Shown: piece by piece, positions 24,601 to 31,832 of the stretch
Position numbering within the stretch: the first letter of the stretch is position 1
Layout: each line of letters opens with the position of its first letter
From: a virus
IMG/VR virus record: IMGVR_UViG_3300032242_000818
Location: 1 to 64,000 of that record
Length of the DNA: 64,000 nt
Reading direction: 5' to 3' (one strand)
Program-made: the position numbers and the translations under genes
The notes under the pieces: generated by a model
Told to the model about the DNA's origin: nothing
The model's input: only the letters and a program-made list of their open reading frames with translations
Databases searched by the model: none

Positions 24601-25199
24601 TGATTAAGATTTTTATAATTACCAGATTCAATTAATTTAATAGCTGGAACAATATCAAAAGCAATAGTAATTCTTGGACGAGTTTCATCATGCCATTCTG
24701 AAGACCTATGAAGATCTTCACCACTTTTGCTTAAAACAATTAGATTATCTTCACTCTTAACTTCTAATTGTAAATTATTTACTCTATATGTAGTGCTTGA
24801 ATTTGGTTCAACATCCAAACAATAAAACCCATGCCATGAGTCAAAGTCTTTTGTCCCATGGGTATGCCAATCAATAAATTGTCCTTTGTTGTAGAAATTC
24901 AACCAACATTGAATGTAATAATCTTGATATGGTTCAGTACCATATTTACTTTGATTGCATGAGTGGAAAGTTTCTTTAATTACATTGTAGAGTTTATGTA
25001 ATCCAGGAATTGGGTATAAAAGAAGATTATACTTGTTGTATAAAAACTCTCTCACGGTTTTTTGCCCATCAAAATCAGAATTGTCTTCTTGGAAATTATC
25101 TTTGATAAACTTATACATAAAATGAGATGTGGATCTCAACTCTTTCAAGTCAAGATCCACTTTTCTAGTATAGATAAAATCCGAATGTAAACTAATCAT
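24585..25199 (-). CDS. putative 2OG-Fe(II) oxygenase
   Basis: WLN, DWH.H, HGFY, HRS..W, RITIAFD. Confidence 0.75.
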   Translation of the reverse strand: MISLHSDFIYTRKVDLDLKELRSTSHFMYKFIKDNFQEDNSDFDGQKTVREFLYNKYNLLLYPIPGLHKLYNVIKETFHSCNQSKYGTEPYQDYYIQCWLNFYNKGQFIDWHTHGTKDFDSWHGFYCLDVEPNSSTTYRVNNLQLEVKSEDNLIVLSKSGEDLHRSSEWHDETRPRITIAFDIVPAIKLIESGNYKNLNHWIPI

Positions 25200-25795
25200 A
25201 ACAACAAATTACCTGCAATTGATATTCTATAATTATCGCTTGTATAAAAAGGATTAACGCAATGATTTAATTCAGAAGGAAACATAATCATTTTACCGTC
25301 ATAAGATTTATCTGTATATATTGTATGTGATTGAATACCACCAAGAACAGTATTATAATAAAACTGAAATGTCGATGCTAATGGAGCACCAGAATTTTTA
25401 ACAGAATCTCTATTCATTTCATCATTTAAATCAAATGGTATAGTTTTCCATATCACAAAACTTATATCATCTGAATGGTGATGTAATGGATTAAATTCGT
25501 ATTTACTTTGAAAATTTACCCAGAGTGATGGCATTTTAAATTTGTGTTCTTTATCACAAATAAAAAATTTATTGTTGAATACTACAAATTCTCTTGCAAT
25601 TTCTTGAACAAAATCAAAAACAACTTTTTGACATTCAATCAATTCATACTGATGTTTCAAATTACCAGCAAGAAATTTATTATAACTCTTTCCAGTAATA
25701 TTATTAATTTCTGCATCAATTGTTTGTAAAACTATTTCAGGAACATCAACAATTAAGTATCCAGGATTATCAAATTTTATGTATTCTATATTCAT
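25196..25795 (-). CDS. putative 2OG-Fe(II) oxygenase
   Basis: WVNFQ.K.EFNP.H.H, FPS.L.H.V.PFY, RISIAGN; start moved to MNIEY because the track extension lies in tRNA-Gly. Confidence 0.82.
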   Translation of the reverse strand: MNIEYIKFDNPGYLIVDVPEIVLQTIDAEINNITGKSYNKFLAGNLKHQYELIECQKVVFDFVQEIAREFVVFNNKFFICDKEHKFKMPSLWVNFQSKYEFNPLHHHSDDISFVIWKTIPFDLNDEMNRDSVKNSGAPLASTFQFYYNTVLGGIQSHTIYTDKSYDGKMIMFPSELNHCVNPFYTSDNYRISIAGNLLL

Positions 25796-25811
25796 TATAG
25801 TATTTAGTCGC

Positions 25812-25886
25812 TGGAGCAGGATATCGGATTCGAACCGATGACATTTTCGTTGGCAACGAAACATTCTACCACTGAATTAATCCTGC
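25812..25886 (-). tRNA. tRNA-Gly(GCC)
   Basis: Cloverleaf, anticodon loop TTGCCAA, CCA end. Confidence 0.92.
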
Positions 25887-25889
25887 GTA

Positions 25890-26531
25890 TTATTTTTTAC
25901 TCAAGCCCAATGCTGGTCTTTTATCATATTTCCATTCTGTATATTTACCTTCAGCATCAACATAATGAAGAAAAATTTGAAGAACTTCTTTGTCTTCTTG
26001 TAATTCTTCTCGCCAGTGCATTACTTGGTTACCATCATAAACTACCATATCTCCAGATTCCAACTCACATGGCGTTCCATCCATAAAAATAGCCCATGGA
26101 GTGTTACTATTATACACACATAAACTAGCAGACCATTCAGCACTATGTCGATCAAAATGTTTTGGCAGAGTAGAACCTTTTGAGTATATCCGTGCATAAC
26201 TAAAGCCTTCAAATAATTTAGTTTGAACTACGGATTCTACAATTGGTTTAAGATTAACAAGAATTGCTTCATTAACTGGAGCAGCATATGCAGCAAAAGA
26301 AACTGGTGAATCATAGTCACCAAAAACAGTTTTATCTTCTGTTGATTTACCAGCAAGCATATATGTAACATCCCTCTGCATATAAAATGCAGTTCTTGCT
26401 AATTCGCAAGCATCTTTACTCAACACATTTTTAATTACTTTAAATTTACCAAAAAATGGTTTAGATTTTCTATCCTCATCAGAGTCGATCATTATTAAAT
26501 CAGGATTATCTGGATCTAGTTGGGTAAACAT
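25890..26531 (-). CDS. 2OG-Fe(II) oxygenase
   Basis: SYARIY..G..L.KH.DR, GD.V.Y.G....HWRE, Q.FLHYVD. Confidence 0.82.
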   Translation of the reverse strand: MFTQLDPDNPDLIMIDSDEDRKSKPFFGKFKVIKNVLSKDACELARTAFYMQRDVTYMLAGKSTEDKTVFGDYDSPVSFAAYAAPVNEAILVNLKPIVESVVQTKLFEGFSYARIYSKGSTLPKHFDRHSAEWSASLCVYNSNTPWAIFMDGTPCELESGDMVVYDGNQVMHWREELQEDKEVLQIFLHYVDAEGKYTEWKYDKRPALGLSKK

Positions 26532-26559
26532 TTAAATTCCTTTATGATTATAACTGTAT

Positions 26560-27033
26560 TTATGCTGCCATATATGATTTATATCTATCAGCAGCATATG
26601 ATGCAGCGAATGCTTTTGGCTTTACCATTGGTACTACATTACACATACCTTTGATATAACCAACTGCTTCATTTATAACGCATGAAGATCCATGCATTTC
26701 ATTTGGGTTAATATCCAGATGAACTTCCACTTCACGATCTTCCAATACATCATGTAATTTTAAATACAATTCCGCAATCTTATAAACTTCATTCATTAGA
26801 CGCATACGTGGCTTGTCTCGTTTCTGATCCCAGTCACGTTCACGAACTACTTCACCAAAAATTTTACAGCCATTGTTTCCATTGATATGAACAACAACAA
26901 CCATAATGTAATCTGCGTACCAATCTTTTCCTATTAGAAATCGTTCAGAGTCACCACCGATATAAACTTTGGTTTCTGGTGTCTGTGCCATGATGAATTC
27001 TCTAACTTCATCAATGTTGATCGCTTTACGCAT
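26560..27033 (-). CDS. RNase H-like YkuK-family protein
   Basis: VYIG.DS, RLMNEV, EVHLDIN, KP.AFAASYAAD. Confidence 0.8.
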   Translation of the reverse strand: MRKAINIDEVREFIMAQTPETKVYIGGDSERFLIGKDWYADYIMVVVVHINGNNGCKIFGEVVRERDWDQKRDKPRMRLMNEVYKIAELYLKLHDVLEDREVEVHLDINPNEMHGSSCVINEAVGYIKGMCNVVPMVKPKAFAASYAADRYKSYMAA

Positions 27034-27067
27034 GATTACCTCTTTTCTTATTACCTCATTAAAAACT

Positions 27068-27141
27068 TGGAGCGGAGTGAGAGAATCGAACTCTCAACAA
27101 CAGATTGGAAATCTGTAGTTTTACCATTAAACTAATCCCGC
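27068..27141 (-). tRNA. tRNA-Gly(TCC)
   Basis: Loop TTTCCAA, CCA end. Confidence 0.9.
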
Positions 27142-27144
27142 AAT

Positions 27145-27218
27145 TGGCATCCCGATAGGGACTCGAACCCCAACCAACAGTTTTGGAGACTGCTATGCTG
27201 CCATTACACCATCGAGAT
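27145..27218 (-). tRNA. tRNA-Trp(CCA)
   Basis: Loop CTCCAAA, CCA end. Confidence 0.9.
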
Positions 27219-27222
27219 ACAT

Positions 27223-27298
27223 TGGTGCCCTTGGACGGATTCGAACCGCCCACCTACTGATTACTAATCAGTTGCTCTACCAAATGAGCTACAAGGGC
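27223..27298 (-). tRNA. tRNA-Thr(AGT), A34 anticodon
   Basis: Stem ACTGA/TCAGT, loop TTAGTAA, GCC acceptor start, CCA end. Confidence 0.88.
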
Positions 27299-27302
27299 AA
27301 AC

Positions 27303-27377
27303 TGGTGGTGATGAGTGGAATCGAGCCACTAACCTACTCCGTATGAAGGAGTTGCACTACCGTTGTGCTACATCACC
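27303..27377 (-). tRNA. tRNA-Met(CAT), probably elongator
   Basis: Loop TTCATAC, paired 1-72, CCA end. Confidence 0.82.
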
Positions 27378-27559
27378 ATTGTTGAACGTACTGTTATGTG
27401 TTTAGTTGGCAGCTTTAAATTCCTGCCACCAGATCCTCAAGCATTTCAATCTATGATGGGTGGTCATAAATTCTCTCCAGATAATGGACGCTGTCTTGAC
27501 TGGCGATTATCTTCCCTAACAGTTGGGATGCCCTTTCTTTTGCTCACACATTCAACAAT
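27378..27559 (-). ncRNA. unidentified structured RNA within the tRNA array (element 1)
   Basis: Ends pair (ATTGTTGAATGT/ACGTTCAACAAT, G:U on minus strand); several internal hairpins. Confidence 0.55.
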
Positions 27560-27641
27560 GGTGCCCCAAGAGAGACTCGAACTCTCACACCGAAGTACTG
27601 GCTTCTAAGACCAGCGTGTCTACCAATTCCACCATCGGGGC
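27559..27641 (-). tRNA. tRNA-Leu(TAG)
   Basis: Loop CTTAGAA, long variable arm. Confidence 0.9.
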
Positions 27642-27648
27642 ATTCATT

Positions 27649-27726
27649 TGGTTGCAGAGGTTGGATTCGAACCAACGATTTCATGGCTTATGAGACCAGA
27701 CGGATAGACCACTTCCATACTCTGCG
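27649..27726 (-). tRNA. tRNA-fMet-like (CAT)
   Basis: C1:A72 mismatch, loop CTCATAA; anticodon stem lacks the full 3 G:C pairs. Confidence 0.78.
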
Positions 27727-27745
27727 ATAACTTACTACTTATAAT

Positions 27746-27820
27746 TGGCTCCAGAGGCAGGGATCGAACCTACGACCAATTGATTAACAGTCAACTGCAC
27801 TACCGCTGTGCTACTCTGGA
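27746..27820 (-). tRNA. tRNA-Asn(GTT)
   Basis: Loop CTGTTAA. Confidence 0.92.
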
Positions 27821-27827
27821 ATAAAAC

Positions 27828-27902
27828 TGGCGACTCGTAGGAGAATCGAACTCCTGTGTCCTGCTAGACAGGCAGGCATAATAACCATTATATTAACGAG
27901 CC
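27828..27902 (-). tRNA. tRNA-Asp(GTC)
   Basis: Loop CTGTCTA. Confidence 0.88.
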
Positions 27903-27908
27903 AAAAAA

Positions 27909-28001
27909 TGGTGGAGCAACTTGGAGTCGAACCAAGATTGTTTACCCAGAGGGACGAGATTTACAGTCTCGGGATGCACACGCCATAGCATCAATTGCTC
28001 C
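27909..28001 (-). tRNA. tRNA-Tyr(GTA)
   Basis: Loop CTGTAAA, long variable arm. Confidence 0.88.
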
Positions 28002-28002
28002 A

Positions 28003-28129
28003 TGATATTAGTTTAGATGACGCACTATTTGCTATGCTCAACGGAATTAGCTGCAGCATTACCGTTTCTATACATAGTTAGGGAGGGTTGACGTTTACCC
28101 AATCGCTTACGTCATCTAAACTAATACCA
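28003..28129 (-). ncRNA. unidentified structured RNA (element 2)
   Basis: 17-bp perfect terminal inverted repeat 28006-22/28110-26. Confidence 0.6.
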
Positions 28130-28130
28130 C

Positions 28131-28343
28131 ATTTAATTACACTGGGATGGTAGACAACAATCTGTTCAACAGTTTACCACGTCATCGTCTGACGATTGGT
28201 TGTTACCACATTACCTTCCAGTTTTGTCCAGCGTCCTCCTGATATTATCTCAAGGTTTCTTGTGTCTATGATCGGTTGGATCGGCACCCAACATTGCGAA
28301 TCATAGAACACCTACTGGCACTGGCAACCCAATGCAATTAAAT
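28131..28343 (-). ncRNA. unidentified structured RNA (element 3)
   Basis: 16-bp closing helix with two G:U pairs on the minus strand; multibranch interior. Confidence 0.6.
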
Positions 28344-28344
28344 C

Positions 28345-28420
28345 TGGTACTCGGTGGGGGAATCGAACCCCTCCTTCCTGCCGTGAAAGGGCAGTGTCCT
28401 AGCCGATAGACGAACCGAGC
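28345..28420 (-). tRNA. tRNA-Glu(TTC)
   Basis: Loop CTTTCAC. Confidence 0.92.
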
Positions 28421-28539
28421 ATGGTGGTGATTTAGTTTTTTGTCATCTGAACTTCACCAAACTTGACATTATGCCTCATGCACCGTATTTACCGTTGACT
28501 TAGAGAGGACTTTTGATTAATTTCTCAACCTAAGACATT

Positions 28540-28602
28540 ATTATACCTCAACTTGCTATAAAAGTCAAGCGATATTTTTAATCCCTTATTGCAAGAAAGG
28601 TT
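28540..28602 (-). promoter_or_regulatory. internal promoter in the tRNA array with palindrome variant
   Basis: TTGACT(28568-63)-17-TATAAT; CCTT-N9-AAGG 28584-28600. Confidence 0.65.
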
Positions 28603-28604
28603 AT

Positions 28605-28678
28605 TGGAGTAAGTGACAGGAATCGAACCTGCTTCCATGGATTTGCAATCCAGTACCTGTCCAACTGGTTCCACTTAC
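28605..28678 (-). tRNA. tRNA-Cys(GCA)
   Basis: Loop TTGCAAA, U73. Confidence 0.85.
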
Positions 28679-28683
28679 ATTAA

Positions 28684-28758
28684 TGGTGGGCTCAAGTGGA
28701 TTCGAACCACTACCTTATCAATTATGAGTTGACGGCACTACCTTTATGCTATGAGCCC
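28684..28758 (-). tRNA. tRNA-Ile2(CAT, lysidine type) probable
   Basis: Loop CTCATAA, GGGCTCA acceptor; Ile2 versus Met is inferred. Confidence 0.75.
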
Positions 28759-28764
28759 AACAAC

Positions 28765-28839
28765 TGGCGCGACATGCAGGAATCGAACCCACATTCGTAG
28801 GGTAGAAGCCTACTGTATTATCCATTATACTAATGCCGC
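28765..28839 (-). tRNA. tRNA-Arg(TCT)
   Basis: Loop CTTCTAC. Confidence 0.88.
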
Positions 28840-28845
28840 AAAAAT

Positions 28846-28931
28846 TGGTACGAGTGGAGGGACTTGAACCCTCAATCCATTACTGGCGACAGATTTTAAG
28901 TCTGTAGTGTATACCATTCCACCACACTCGC
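28846..28931 (-). tRNA. tRNA-Leu(TAA)
   Basis: Loop CTTAAAA, long variable arm. Confidence 0.9.
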
Positions 28932-28940
28932 AACTAACAC

Positions 28941-29029
28941 TGGCGGAAGATGTGAGAGTTGAACTCACTCACCGATTTAACTCGATGACAGATTAGCAAT
29001 CTGCTGCATTACCGTCCTGCCCATCTTCC
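28941..29029 (-). tRNA. tRNA-Ser(GCT)
   Basis: Loop TTGCTAA, long variable arm. Confidence 0.9.
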
Positions 29030-29035
29030 TAACTT

Positions 29036-29111
29036 TGGTACCCAATAGAGGAATTGAACCTCTACCTCTGCGTTCGTAGCACAGTGTGATCATCCATTTC
29101 ACCAATCGGGC
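29036..29111 (-). tRNA. tRNA-Arg(ACG)
   Basis: Loop CTACGAA. Confidence 0.88.
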
Positions 29112-29116
29112 ATATT

Positions 29117-29208
29117 TGGCGGAAAGCAGAGGAGTCGAACCCCATCCCATTTCTGAGAACCCAGTTTTCAAGGCTGGTCGGCGCACCAACGCACCTGCAT
29201 TACTTTCC
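29117..29208 (-). tRNA. tRNA-Ser(TGA)
   Basis: Loop CTTGAAA, long variable arm. Confidence 0.9.
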
Positions 29209-29213
29209 ATATT

Positions 29214-29288
29214 TGGTACCTCGTGACAGATTCGAACTGCCGACCTTCTCCGTGTAAAGGAGACACTCTACCACTGAGTTAACGAGGC
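29214..29288 (-). tRNA. tRNA-Val(TAC)
   Basis: Loop TTTACAC. Confidence 0.9.
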
Positions 29289-29294
29289 ATATTT

Positions 29295-29369
29295 TGGTGG
29301 ACCGTAAGAGAATCGAACTCTTACCTCTGACGTGCAAAGCCAGCGTGCTCCCATTATCACTAACAGCCC
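29295..29369 (-). tRNA. tRNA-Ala(TGC)
   Basis: Loop TTTGCAC, G3:U70. Confidence 0.9.
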
Positions 29370-29376
29370 AAAACAT

Positions 29377-29453
<77 letters not shown>

Positions 29454-29461
29454 ATAAAAAC

Positions 29462-29535
29462 TGGTGCCCCATGACAGAATCGAACTGCCGTAACCTGATT
29501 ACAAAACAGGTGTAATACCATTATACTAATAGGGC
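29462..29535 (-). tRNA. tRNA-Thr(TGT)
   Basis: Loop TTTGTAA. Confidence 0.9.
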
Positions 29536-29536
29536 A

Positions 29537-29610
29537 TGGTCCTCTCGACAAGAATTGAACTTGTAATGGACGCTTATCAAGCGTCTGTTATACCATTTAA
29601 CTACAAGAGG
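29537..29610 (-). tRNA. tRNA-Ile(GAT)
   Basis: Loop TTGATAA. Confidence 0.88.
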
Positions 29611-29615
29611 ATATT

Positions 29616-29691
29616 TGGTGCTGCCTAGTAGAATCGAACTACTTTCCGAGGTTCTTCAGACCCCTGCTATGACCACATCAGCTAAAGCAGC
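29616..29691 (-). tRNA. tRNA-Phe(GAA)
   Basis: Loop CTGAAGA. Confidence 0.88.
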
Positions 29692-29693
29692 AT

Positions 29694-29768
29694 TGGGGTG
29701 TCGTATGAGAATTGAACTCATGATGACGGAATCACAATCCGTAGTTTTACCACTAAACTAACAACACC
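29694..29768 (-). tRNA. tRNA-His(GTG)
   Basis: Loop TTGTGAT, G-1:C73. Confidence 0.9.
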
Positions 29769-29773
29769 ATAAT

Positions 29774-29847
29774 TGGTAGGGGCACAGAGAATTGAACTCT
29801 GGTTAATAGGTTAAAAGCCTACTACTTTACCACTAAGTTATACCCCC
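29774..29847 (-). tRNA. tRNA-Lys(TTT)
   Basis: Loop CTTTTAA. Confidence 0.9.
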
Positions 29848-29855
29848 AAAACTTA

Positions 29856-29950
29856 CCAAACAAAAACACATTGAGTAGGAGTCGAACCTACATTTAATGC
29901 CTTATGAACACCATCCTGGCCAATTAGATGATCAATGTGTTTTTGTTTGG
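29856..29950 (-). ncRNA. tRNA-like RNA with extended acceptor helix and no CCA
   Basis: 19-bp perfect terminal repeat enclosing a D arm, a shortened anticodon arm and a canonical T arm GTAGG-TTCGACT-CCTAC. Confidence 0.7.
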
Positions 29951-30021
29951 CACCCGAAATAAGAATCGAACTTATACTAACAGAGTCAAAGTCTGCTGTG
30001 CTACCACTACACCATTCGGGA
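29948..30021 (-). tRNA. tRNA-Gln(TTG)
   Basis: Loop CTTTGAC, unpaired 1-72. Confidence 0.9.
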
Positions 30022-30033
30022 ACATTTGGTACG

Positions 30034-30050
30034 CAAATTTTTAAAGAACA
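30034..30050 (-). promoter_or_regulatory. rrn-type boxA antitermination element
   Basis: TGTTCTTTAAAAATTTG versus rrn consensus TGCTCTTTAACA, just upstream of the first tRNA. Confidence 0.7.
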
Positions 30051-30065
30051 TTGGGCACGATGGCC

Positions 30066-30105
30066 AAAAACAAAAAACCCTCTAACTTTTCAGGTAGAGG
30101 GTTTT
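30066..30105 (-). terminator. intrinsic terminator (attenuator) upstream of the tRNA array
   Basis: AAAACCCTCTA-loop-TAGAGGGTTTT-TTGTTTTT. Confidence 0.85.
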
Positions 30106-30151
30106 GGGAAATAAACTAGTATTTGTTTACTTTACTTTCCAAAACCCCCTC
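30096..30151 (-). promoter_or_regulatory. antiterminator helix, mutually exclusive with the terminator
   Basis: AGGGGGTTTTGG (end of leader ORF) pairs with CCAAAACCCTCT (5' arm of terminator); AAAGTAAAC/GTTTATTT extends it. Confidence 0.75.
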
Positions 30152-30254
30152 GATCAAACGCATATGATACATTAATCTCTGGGCGTGAGCATGTCCAGCC
30201 ACTTAATAGTGGTAGATGTTTATTCATCTGTCTGGATATGTTTAACGATTTCAT
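30132..30254 (-). CDS. 40-aa attenuator leader peptide containing all 20 amino acids (not in ORF track)
   Basis: MKSLNISRQMNKHLPLLSGWTCSRPEINVSYAFDRGGFGK*; ATG at the predicted +1; last codons form the antiterminator 5' arm. Confidence 0.75.
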   Translation of the reverse strand: MKSLNISRQMNKHLPLLSGWTCSRPEINVSYAFDRGGFGK

Positions 30255-30261
30255 AGGATTG

Positions 30262-30326
30262 ATTATACTACAGTTTTCTTTGAAAGTAAAGCGAAATTTT
30301 AATAACCTTACAATTCGTAGGGTTAT
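30262..30326 (-). promoter_or_regulatory. tRNA operon promoter with palindrome
   Basis: TTTACT(30290-85)-17-TATAAT(30267-62); palindrome ATAACCTTAC-AATTC-GTAGGGTTAT 30302-30326. Confidence 0.72.
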
Positions 30327-30361
30327 GTTTTATTTAGGAGTGTTTCTCACCTCTAGCACTT

Positions 30362-30390
30362 ATTATACGATACTATTTGATAAAAGTCAA
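30362..30390 (-). promoter_or_regulatory. upstream tandem sigma70-like promoter
   Basis: TTGACT-17-TATAAT. Confidence 0.65.
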
Positions 30391-30417
30391 GTATTATTTT
30401 GACTTTATTTTTGCATT

Positions 30418-31365
30418 TTATGAGATTATACCGTTGTCGTATTTTACCATTCCAGTAAATAATTTGTATCCAATACCAAAACGCATATCTTTTTTCTTCT
30501 CTAGAGTAAAGTTACCAACACCATCAATAATTTTAATTTCCATATCATCAATTTCATTACATTTACTTTTTAGGTAAACAATATCAATATTATTAGCAAC
30601 ATTAGAAATATTGAAATGCGGTACTGTTATTTTTGATGGTATTGAATATTCGCCCCTGTTAATTGGCATATGCTTAAAAATTCTTTTATCATTAATGGTT
30701 GGATCTGTTATAGTTATTTTAAATTCTATATTATTATCACAATCTTTAGATTGCAATTCAATTGGGCAAAACATCCATGTCCAATTTGGCTGAAAAATTT
30801 GTAAGTTTTGATTATCTAAATCAATAGTAGCTGGTATATTAGTAACAACGCATATATTATGTATATCTCGTTGATGTTCATTAATTGCTTTTCTTGGTTT
30901 TGTTACTTGATAGACAAAATTAGTAAAGTTATGTTTTTCTGATGGTACAAATATCCTTAGAGGAATTTGACCACATTTATCAACTGGTTTATAATTTAAA
31001 ATATGCGGTCCATCACCATTTGGTTCAGTTCTATGTTTTGACAACTCTAACAGAGAACACATATCACTGAATTTCAACTCTTTCGTTGTAGGATCCCAAA
31101 ATTTAATGTTATTATCATAGATATCAGTTGTTTCACAAACAGAATTATATGGTGTCCAAAAAGTTTGGTCGGCATAACTTGGATGTTTTTTGAATTCTTC
31201 TAATGATAATGTTATACTAAAAATTGTTTCATTATTCCTAAGATTTATAAATCTATATCGAAAAGTTTCTGGAGTTACAAAAATATCATTTAAGAACATA
31301 GTTTCTTCTTGGTAGTATTTTAACCAGTTATTCCAAGAACATCTACTAGCATATACATGCATCAT
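30418..31365 (-). CDS. hypothetical protein
   Basis: 315-aa AT-rich ORF. Confidence 0.65.
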   Translation of the reverse strand: MMHVYASRCSWNNWLKYYQEETMFLNDIFVTPETFRYRFINLRNNETIFSITLSLEEFKKHPSYADQTFWTPYNSVCETTDIYDNNIKFWDPTTKELKFSDMCSLLELSKHRTEPNGDGPHILNYKPVDKCGQIPLRIFVPSEKHNFTNFVYQVTKPRKAINEHQRDIHNICVVTNIPATIDLDNQNLQIFQPNWTWMFCPIELQSKDCDNNIEFKITITDPTINDKRIFKHMPINRGEYSIPSKITVPHFNISNVANNIDIVYLKSKCNEIDDMEIKIIDGVGNFTLEKKKDMRFGIGYKLFTGMVKYDNGIIS

Positions 31366-31832
31366 ACTTTTTCCACTTTAATTTTACATTTTTCAAGAAA
31401 CTCCAAACCGATAGTATCGCGATATGACTCATGATAGTAAACTTTACTTATGCCTGCTCCATGAATCAACTTAGCGCAATGTATACAAGGAGCATGAGTA
31501 CAGAATAAACTTGAGCCATTGCCTGATTCGCCATCACGAGCCAGTTTGAGTATAGCATTTGCTTCAGCATGAATAACCTCATTTTTTGTTACCAATTTAT
31601 ATGTTATCCACTCATCGTGAAGTTTGTCTGTTTGCTCACGCCAATCACCATCATCACAATAGATTTTAGTTTCACATTCATTTGTCCAACCAGCTGGCAT
31701 GCCATTGTAACCAATTGAGATAATACGATTATCTTTAACGATAACCGCACCTACCTTCAACCTAACTGCACTGGACAAATCTGCGAATCTAGTCGCAGTA
31801 TCCATAAATGCTCTAATCCATTTTGGTTTCAT
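31362..31832 (-). CDS. dCMP deaminase
   Basis: VGAVIV, GYNG, HAEANAI, THAPCIHCAK. Confidence 0.93.
   Translation of the reverse strand: MKPKWIRAFMDTATRFADLSSAVRLKVGAVIVKDNRIISIGYNGMPAGWTNECETKIYCDDGDWREQTDKLHDEWITYKLVTKNEVIHAEANAILKLARDGESGNGSSLFCTHAPCIHCAKLIHGAGISKVYYHESYRDTIGLEFLEKCKIKVEKV

Follow-up and report, generated by a model that had tools for sequence, protein, structure and literature searches.

The closest described counterparts of the element reported here are the attenuators of amino-acid operons (trpL, hisL, leuL and pheL, and the multivalent ilvGMEDA and thr leaders), in which a short leader open reading frame (ORF) precedes an intrinsic terminator, the 5' arm of that terminator has an alternative pairing partner, and the position of the ribosome decides which structure forms. 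We describe a unit of the same general design, about 230 nucleotides (nt) long, at the head of the tRNA operon of an uncultured phage (IMG/VR virus record IMGVR_UViG_3300032242_000818); the window analysed is the first 64 kb of this 164.7-kb record, which has direct terminal repeats and 36% G+C. The unit lies on the minus strand, as do the 27 tRNA genes (25812-30021) that follow it and that together cover all 20 amino acids; unless stated otherwise, the features given below are on that strand. On the evidence presented here, we put the probability that the unit is a ribosome-mediated transcription attenuator at roughly 0.6. It departs from the amino-acid operon attenuators in several respects: it would regulate tRNAs rather than biosynthetic enzymes; its leader has no run of regulatory codons and is enriched in no single residue, but spans the complete set of 20, the majority occurring one or two times; its mRNA is predicted to be leaderless; and its layout is three-stranded, with no conserved 1:2 pause or anti-antiterminator helix found, so that untranslated phage RNA should read through rather than terminate.

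Other known systems share part of this logic. The mycobacterial leaderless polycysteine short ORFs (Canestrari et al., bioRxiv 10.1101/834739) also stand at the 5' end of an operon and use ribosome stalling as an amino-acid sensor; however, they sense cysteine only, control protein-coding genes and act on translation, by freeing a masked ribosome-binding site. T-box riboswitches likewise couple the choice between antiterminator and terminator to the condition of the tRNA pool; they, however, bind one specific uncharged tRNA directly, with neither a ribosome nor an ORF, and their targets are aminoacyl-tRNA synthetase and amino-acid genes. Full-text searches of the literature brought up neither a leader-peptide attenuator on phage tRNA genes nor a leader holding all amino acids. 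What phage tRNA genes are for has been disputed for some 50 years, and the control of their expression has hardly been studied. A leader that uses the whole amino-acid alphabet would, if the reading is true, represent a new sensing logic for ribosome-mediated attenuation, addressed to global decoding capacity, and the first such switch on tRNA genes. As the element is short and defined to the nucleotide, it is directly testable, and its composition rule offers a simple search handle for related sensors in other phage genomes.

In the scheme that we propose, transcription from the leader promoter (30290-30262) would yield a leaderless mRNA that opens with the AUG of the leader ORF (30254-30132, 40 codons). 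By pairing with the terminator's 5' arm, the last codons of this ORF (30150-30139), together with a hairpin termed P1, would create an antiterminator, which, being transcribed first, would be the default structure. A ribosome standing on the last eight or so codons, or on the stop codon, would mask the antiterminator strand; the terminator would then form and transcription would end at 30077-30066. With the ribosome delayed further upstream, or absent, the antiterminator would stay in place, and polymerase would continue past the terminator into the boxB/boxA leader and on to the tRNA genes. Slow decoding would in this way raise tRNA transcription, a negative feedback on the tRNA pool. Because all 20 amino acids are sampled, largely by codons that are rare in the phage genes, the leader would report overall decoding capacity and not the supply of one amino acid. 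The scheme is carried by computed properties of the unit and its relatives, namely a conserved frame with the signature of translation, an amino-acid completeness that bears the marks of selection, conserved competing helices, and a dependence of the fold on ribosome position; from these we infer actual translation, the efficiency of termination and the physiological signal.

The starting point was an original prediction made from the letters of this stretch, and every statement that it makes about the sequence holds. The promoter that it named is located at 30290-30262 as TTTACT-17-TATAAT; its -10 hexamer ends 7 nt 5' of the ATG, and the transcript should start at or beside the A of the AUG, which would make the mRNA leaderless. 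The leader ORF also reads as described, with 40 codons of 32 distinct kinds followed by TAA, and with all 20 amino acids falling within residues 9-34. This diversity is beyond chance: among the 101,525 stop-free 26-codon windows in the six frames of the 164.7-kb genome, the leader is the only one to hold all 20 residues, the next-best stretch of the genome needing 28 codons, and random 40-codon ORFs of the same base composition contain all 20 in 0.5% of simulations and contain them within 26 codons at a frequency of 2e-5. The leader peptide has no match in Pfam or PHROG, with nothing below E=0.09, and an Rfam scan of 25000-31500 with E up to 1 returned tRNA matches only, without a T-box or known leader family.

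The comparison with relatives strengthens the attenuator interpretation. Eighty related metagenomic phage loci were fetched with the neighbouring dCMP deaminase gene as anchor, and nhmmer identified a unit homologous to 30061-30295 in 55 of them. The unit lies directly 5' of the tRNA array, the first tRNA of which is usually Gln, but Arg, His or Glu in rearranged arrays. When the count is limited to loci for which 2.5 kb or more of sequence follows downstream, 33 possess both the leader and tRNAs, 10 possess neither, two have tRNAs only and none has the leader only. A profile search of 5.8 billion proteins added 44 members, all of them unnamed or hypothetical, and a tblastn search of the leader peptide against 50,697 phage records, aimed at cultured phages, gave chance matches only, so that none of the cultured phages covered has the unit. 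The peptides diverge to about 35% identity within the family. The original prediction had named homologues lacking an open frame or the residue diversity as evidence that would speak against it; in the relatives, the open frame, the diversity and the competition between antiterminator and terminator are all kept.

The completeness of the amino-acid set is what makes the family a departure from known leader-peptide attenuators. Across 66 unique peptides of 32-47 residues, 47 contain 20 amino-acid types and the remaining 19 contain 19 types; an additional compact outlier, L034, has 18 types in 32 residues. Random peptides of matched lengths reach 20 types in 0.8% of cases when drawn with the composition of the phage proteome and in 5.5% with a uniform composition, and real 41-residue windows of the proteins encoded by the genome do so in 0.4%. 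Shuffling residues within alignment columns, a null in which the unusual composition of the family is retained from the start, yields 18.39 +/- 0.10 types on average; the observed mean is 19.71, a value reached by none of 2000 shuffles. The scarce residues are informative in this respect. His occurs as one copy in 63 of the 66 peptides, spread over nine alignment columns; Tyr as one copy in 65, over six columns; and Cys as one copy in 57, over 12 columns, and two closely related peptides have His and Tyr in swapped positions. The pattern is what would be expected if each of these residues had to be present exactly once, at no fixed position. When relatedness was limited by taking 11 representatives with less than 60% mutual identity, eight had 20 types and three had 19, where the column-shuffle null gives probabilities per sequence of 0.14 for 20 types and 0.48 for 19 or more.

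A second set of loci, fetched via the deaminase of a divergent locus (L076), yielded a second subfamily. The peptides of this subfamily 2 (L085-L161, for example L090:5114-5224 and L161:4559-4657) share almost nothing with those of subfamily 1 except one Trp. Nevertheless, its 12 unique peptides (31-42 residues) contain 20 types in seven cases and 19 in five, and one peptide of only 32 residues holds all 20 amino acids (P about 4e-4 under the proteome composition). The subfamily-2 units have either the layout TATAAT-6 nt-ATG or a leader of the Shine-Dalgarno type. These patterns indicate that the completeness of the amino-acid set has been under selection in the family. They also bear on a simpler explanation, in which the unit is a stand-alone small-protein gene: the 31-47-residue peptide would act in trans, for instance on host translation or on a tRNA-targeting defence, from its own promoter and with an ordinary terminator, and its linkage to the array would reflect cassette ancestry only. 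Such a gene, which has no Pfam or PHROG match, offers no reason why 19-20 types should be kept while the single His, Tyr and Cys shift position, or why two subfamilies almost without common sequence should nevertheless be alike in composition, and we regard this explanation as unlikely. It does agree with the annotation of the ORF as a hypothetical protein by gene callers in metagenomes, and with further evidence considered below.

The codons used add to this picture. The original prediction held that the leader has a codon for every tRNA of the array except Thr(AGT); 24 of the 25 anticodon classes are indeed covered, and the single exception disappears, giving 25 of 25, if A34 is counted as inosine. 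Synonymous recoding of the peptide according to the codon usage of the genome covers all 25 classes with P=0.0015; for 24 or more, P=0.022. In the six four-codon boxes for which the array has only U34 tRNAs, codons ending in A or G make up 74.5% of leader codons across the family compared with 41.9% in phage genes; T-ending codons of four-codon boxes, which account for 28-61% in phage genes, are rare in leaders. In the 42 relatives, ATA, GAG, CAG, CGC, TCC and TCG are strongly over-used. Overall, the codon usage of these leaders is approximately the reverse of the phage's own. Such a bias fits a tuning of the leader for sensitivity; it could also stem in part from the needs of RNA structure. 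The leader of leuL, too, contains rare Leu codons.

Several features are expected of a translated sequence. In all 42 unique coding sequences the leader frame is open, against approximately three stops in each of the other two frames; all 42 unique units start with ATG; and all insertions and deletions that separate homologues of different length are in frame. The -10 hexamer ends 6-7 nt 5' of the ATG in 32 of the 42 units. In some others, the promoter lies further upstream and a short leader carries a Shine-Dalgarno-like GGAAG or AAGGA before the ATG; the leaderless start and the Shine-Dalgarno-like leader thus look like two routes to the translation of the same frame. A Leu-Pro pair is near-invariant in the peptide, and its codons vary only at synonymous sites. 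Together, these features suggest that the ORF is translated. They are difficult to reconcile with a reading in which the ORF is incidental and the unit is a structured RNA without coding function or serves in processing, for instance as an RNase III site or as a stable small RNA at the tRNA precursor's 5' end. This possibility draws on a long imperfect helix of about 19-25 bp, on a fold more stable than shuffled sequence (z = -3.2) and on invariant third positions in codons 23-25 combined with variable first positions; but it would leave the open frame, the in-frame indels, the invariant ATG, whose spacing to the -10 hexamer is fixed unless a Shine-Dalgarno-type leader precedes it, and the amino-acid statistics unexplained, and no Rfam family matches the unit. 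We consider it highly improbable.

The motif in codons 23-25, NCA-CGC-NCA (30180-30188), deserves mention in its own right. Its third positions are invariant in the 42 unique homologues and its first positions vary, so that the encoded residues are Ser, Thr or Ala, then Arg, then Pro, Thr or Ser; such a pattern is suggestive of a constraint at the level of nucleotides or codons. It is pure speculation that this motif and the conserved peptide positions serve a programmed pause induced by the nascent peptide. A trp-like 1:2 anti-antiterminator built on the conserved CACGC of this region was considered and rejected, as its pairing with a G-run is not kept in relatives.

At the level of RNA structure, the original prediction held that the last leader codons pair with the 5' arm of the terminator. 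This complementarity is real: 30150-30139, in the last codons (Arg-Gly-Gly-Phe-Gly), is complementary to 30107-30096, which overlaps that arm. The intrinsic terminator (30105-30066) is composed of an 11-bp G+C-rich stem (30105-30095 with 30084-30074) and a T-run (30077-30066); it is unique in the window and conserved in 34 of 34 aligned relatives. Hairpin P1 (30141-30105), within which the stop codon lies (30134-30132), is present in either conformation and directly adjoins the terminator. The strand 30107-30096 is shared, being the partner of 30150-30139 in the antiterminator or, from 30105 down, of 30084-30074 in the terminator. The antiterminator is a 19-bp helix, P1 plus its extension into the last codons, and it has 30104-30096 in common with the terminator.

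Both helices are maintained in the family. In the 34 relatives, the terminator pairing is kept in 94.5% of alignment cells and the antiterminator pairing in 90.8%, compared with 37-67% in slid controls of the latter. One pair of P1 covaries, being GC in 15 sequences and AU in 14. In the extension, the third positions of the two Gly codons and of the Phe codon, where paired, are constrained to (near-)invariance, while the Gly codon at the sole conserved mismatch ends in A, T or C. A run of T in the leader and the run of A in its partner strand have been shortened jointly from four to three in at least seven relatives, and an A-to-G change in the shared strand preserves pairing with U in both helices. 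The invariant paired sites, the joint shortening and the A-to-G change point to a constraint at the RNA level. In subfamily 2, the 3' end of the ORF likewise mimics the 3' arm of the terminator, with a different sequence. When the RNA was ended before the terminator 3' arm, folding gave the long antiterminator in 12 of 12 subfamily-1 representatives and in eight of 10 subfamily-2 members. The mimicry of a terminator arm by the coding 3' end, together with its constrained synonymous sites, in both subfamilies, finds no explanation if the unit is a stand-alone small-protein gene.

The response of these structures to the ribosome was modelled with minimum-free-energy folds of the 42 units. In free RNA, the terminator is intact in 15 units. 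When a ribosome footprint covers the stop codon, or the A site is on one of the last eight codons, it is intact in all 42. Stalls 10 or more codons upstream return this number to 13-17, apart from 23 units at exactly 10 codons with a front-edge setting of +12. In these models, termination thus seems to require that a ribosome stand at the ORF's end, and an absent or delayed ribosome would favour read-through. The proposal that stalling at any depleted tRNA frees the antiterminator is in consequence too strong: in the models, stalls in the last eight codons force termination.

This behaviour is also what would be expected of a translation-dependent terminator that merely insulates the tRNA operon from upstream early transcription and senses whether translation is on or off, the set of 20 amino acids having no sensing role. 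In favour of such an insulator, the folding models respond only to ribosome cover of the last eight or so codons, and Asp, along with some other residues, is placed where stalls cannot be sensed. However, it leaves unexplained the family-wide selection for a complete amino-acid set, the bias to codons that are rare in phage genes and the full coverage of the anticodon classes of the array, and we give it only a small chance of being correct.

A number of observations weigh against the attenuator reading. The first concern the range of the sensor. The single Asp codon lies within the termination-forcing zone in 38 of the 42 units, often accompanied by Glu, Tyr or Phe codons, and under a strict footprint model 14-19 amino acids, and not 20, would be sensed. 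Nor is the leader a strict mirror of the array: within this family, a correspondence between the two amino-acid sets was not supported, as leaders without Val precede arrays with tRNA-Val, in a comparison for which most fetched arrays are cut by the flank limit. A second group concerns the helices. The pairs of the antiterminator extension are mostly invariant and not covarying, and part of their conservation could reflect the peptide Gly-Gly-Phe-Gly-Lys; RNAalifold applied to the full unit recovers only the terminator as consensus structure, and found no conserved anti-antiterminator of the 1:2 type, the ORF having local hairpins. Thirdly, the Leu-Pro pair, Trp and Arg are conserved at their positions in the peptide, which suggests that the peptide itself has some role; this conservation, with the purely synonymous variation of Leu-Pro, is what a small-protein gene would predict. 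Finally, 17-18 of the 37 unique spacers, and all subfamily-2 members that were inspected, have one or two strong promoters between the terminator and the boxA-like motif that precedes the tRNA genes. Because these promoters are 3' of the terminator, the array in such phages is independent of read-through, and the switch would only add to a constitutive level; the unit could there act as a gene of its own. Separate tRNA promoters in approximately half of the relatives also speak for the small-protein gene, which in the window phage would leave 16 tRNA genes without a promoter.

The organization of the array in the window phage favours an attenuator. The first 16 tRNA genes, from Gln to Cys (30021-28605), have no credible promoter of their own 3' of the terminator. 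Because no credible promoter separates them from it, they can be transcribed only by read-through; and because they depend on read-through, we argue that the terminator is conditional. The only other strong same-strand promoter in the array is internal (28568-28540) and precedes the remaining 11 tRNA genes (28568-25812 including this promoter), the expression of which can be independent of the switch.

Phage tRNAs have been proposed to compensate for codon usage, to replace a decaying host tRNA pool and to allow escape from tRNA-cleaving defences (PMC10264068, PMC11555353, PMC11464382). An attenuator of the kind outlined above would suit a decoding-capacity homeostat, in which any slowdown of the lead ribosome leads to read-through of the terminator and hence to more phage tRNA; that phages with large tRNA arrays run such a homeostat is a tentative generalization, to which we give somewhat less than even odds. 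It could be triggered when the tRNA pool of the host decays, under starvation, or by a host anticodon nuclease.

A second promoter of the sigma-70 type lies in tandem upstream of the leader promoter (30390-30362), with 11 of 12 consensus matches. Transcripts from it would have the leader ORF after an untranslated leader of about 100 nt that lacks any Shine-Dalgarno sequence; a second promoter 81-107 nt 5' of the ATG is present in approximately 26 of the 42 unique family members. We infer that these longer transcripts would be little translated and read through, providing basal expression, and that the leaderless transcripts would be the regulated part. A stem-loop lies between the two promoters (30302-30326, not assigned to a strand), and the same hairpin-then-promoter module occurs in relatives. 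In these relatives, modules made of a hairpin and an early promoter recur around the unit and between terminator and boxA, some of them as tandem repeats. They are reminiscent of the PeSLs of T4-type phages, described as cassettes for recombination and regulation on either side of variable genes; these likewise combine a stem-loop with an early promoter but, as described, comprise neither a leader ORF nor an antiterminator (PMC2839356, PMC4122927).

Downstream of the switch, a small boxB-like hairpin (30065-30054), read from the sequence, directly follows the terminator; both sides of its stem change in relatives, from GGC/GCC to AGC/GCT, as judged by eye only. It is followed by a motif (30050-30038) that we take to resemble the boxA of the E. 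coli rrn operons. This boxA-like motif ends 16 nt 5' of tRNA-Gln and is the sole exact copy within the window; a regular expression detects it a short distance 5' of the first tRNA in 21 of the 39 unique spacers from relatives, most of the others showing variants on inspection by eye. Where relatives have extra promoters, these are inserted 5' of the boxA-like motif. The arrangement resembles rrn-type boxA antitermination, in which a boxA-like motif follows a small hairpin between promoters, arranged in tandem upstream, and untranslated RNA genes; the rrn-type system differs from the leader switch in that it modifies the polymerase after initiation and involves no leader ORF. In the phage, the motif lies 3' of the switch and would constitute a separate second layer; it suggests Nus-type antitermination of the untranslated array, the binding of NusB/NusE being putative.

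Two variant units were seen among the relatives. In L034 (9301-9470), whose leader of 18 amino-acid types is reduced to 32 codons, boxA is fused straight to the T-run before a tRNA-His. In L009 (1739-1932), the T-run is degraded and the array is fragmented, with five tRNAs.

As to the phage itself, its dCMP deaminase is nearest to that of the T4-like Caulobacter phage Cr30 (46% identity), and its tRNA-Gln is similar to the tRNA-Gln of T4-like Acinetobacter phages; solely from these two likenesses, we assign it to the T4-like phages. Between the deaminase gene and the leader lies a 315-residue ORF (30418-31365) that is absent from most relatives, in which approximately 360 nt separate the deaminase gene from tRNA-Gln. 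A pattern search of IMG/VR found no relative of this ORF, which is probably an insertion particular to one lineage. Within the array, the call of a tRNA-Tyr with anticodon ATA by ARAGORN (29939-29866) is odd and has a low Rfam tRNA score (40.9 bits), and the same odd call is found at the equivalent place in the relative L018. A gap left empty by ARAGORN (29208-29121) contains a weak Rfam match to tRNA-Sec (34.9 bits, below threshold), and may correspond to a long-arm tRNA, such as Ser-UGA, overlooked by the tRNA finder.

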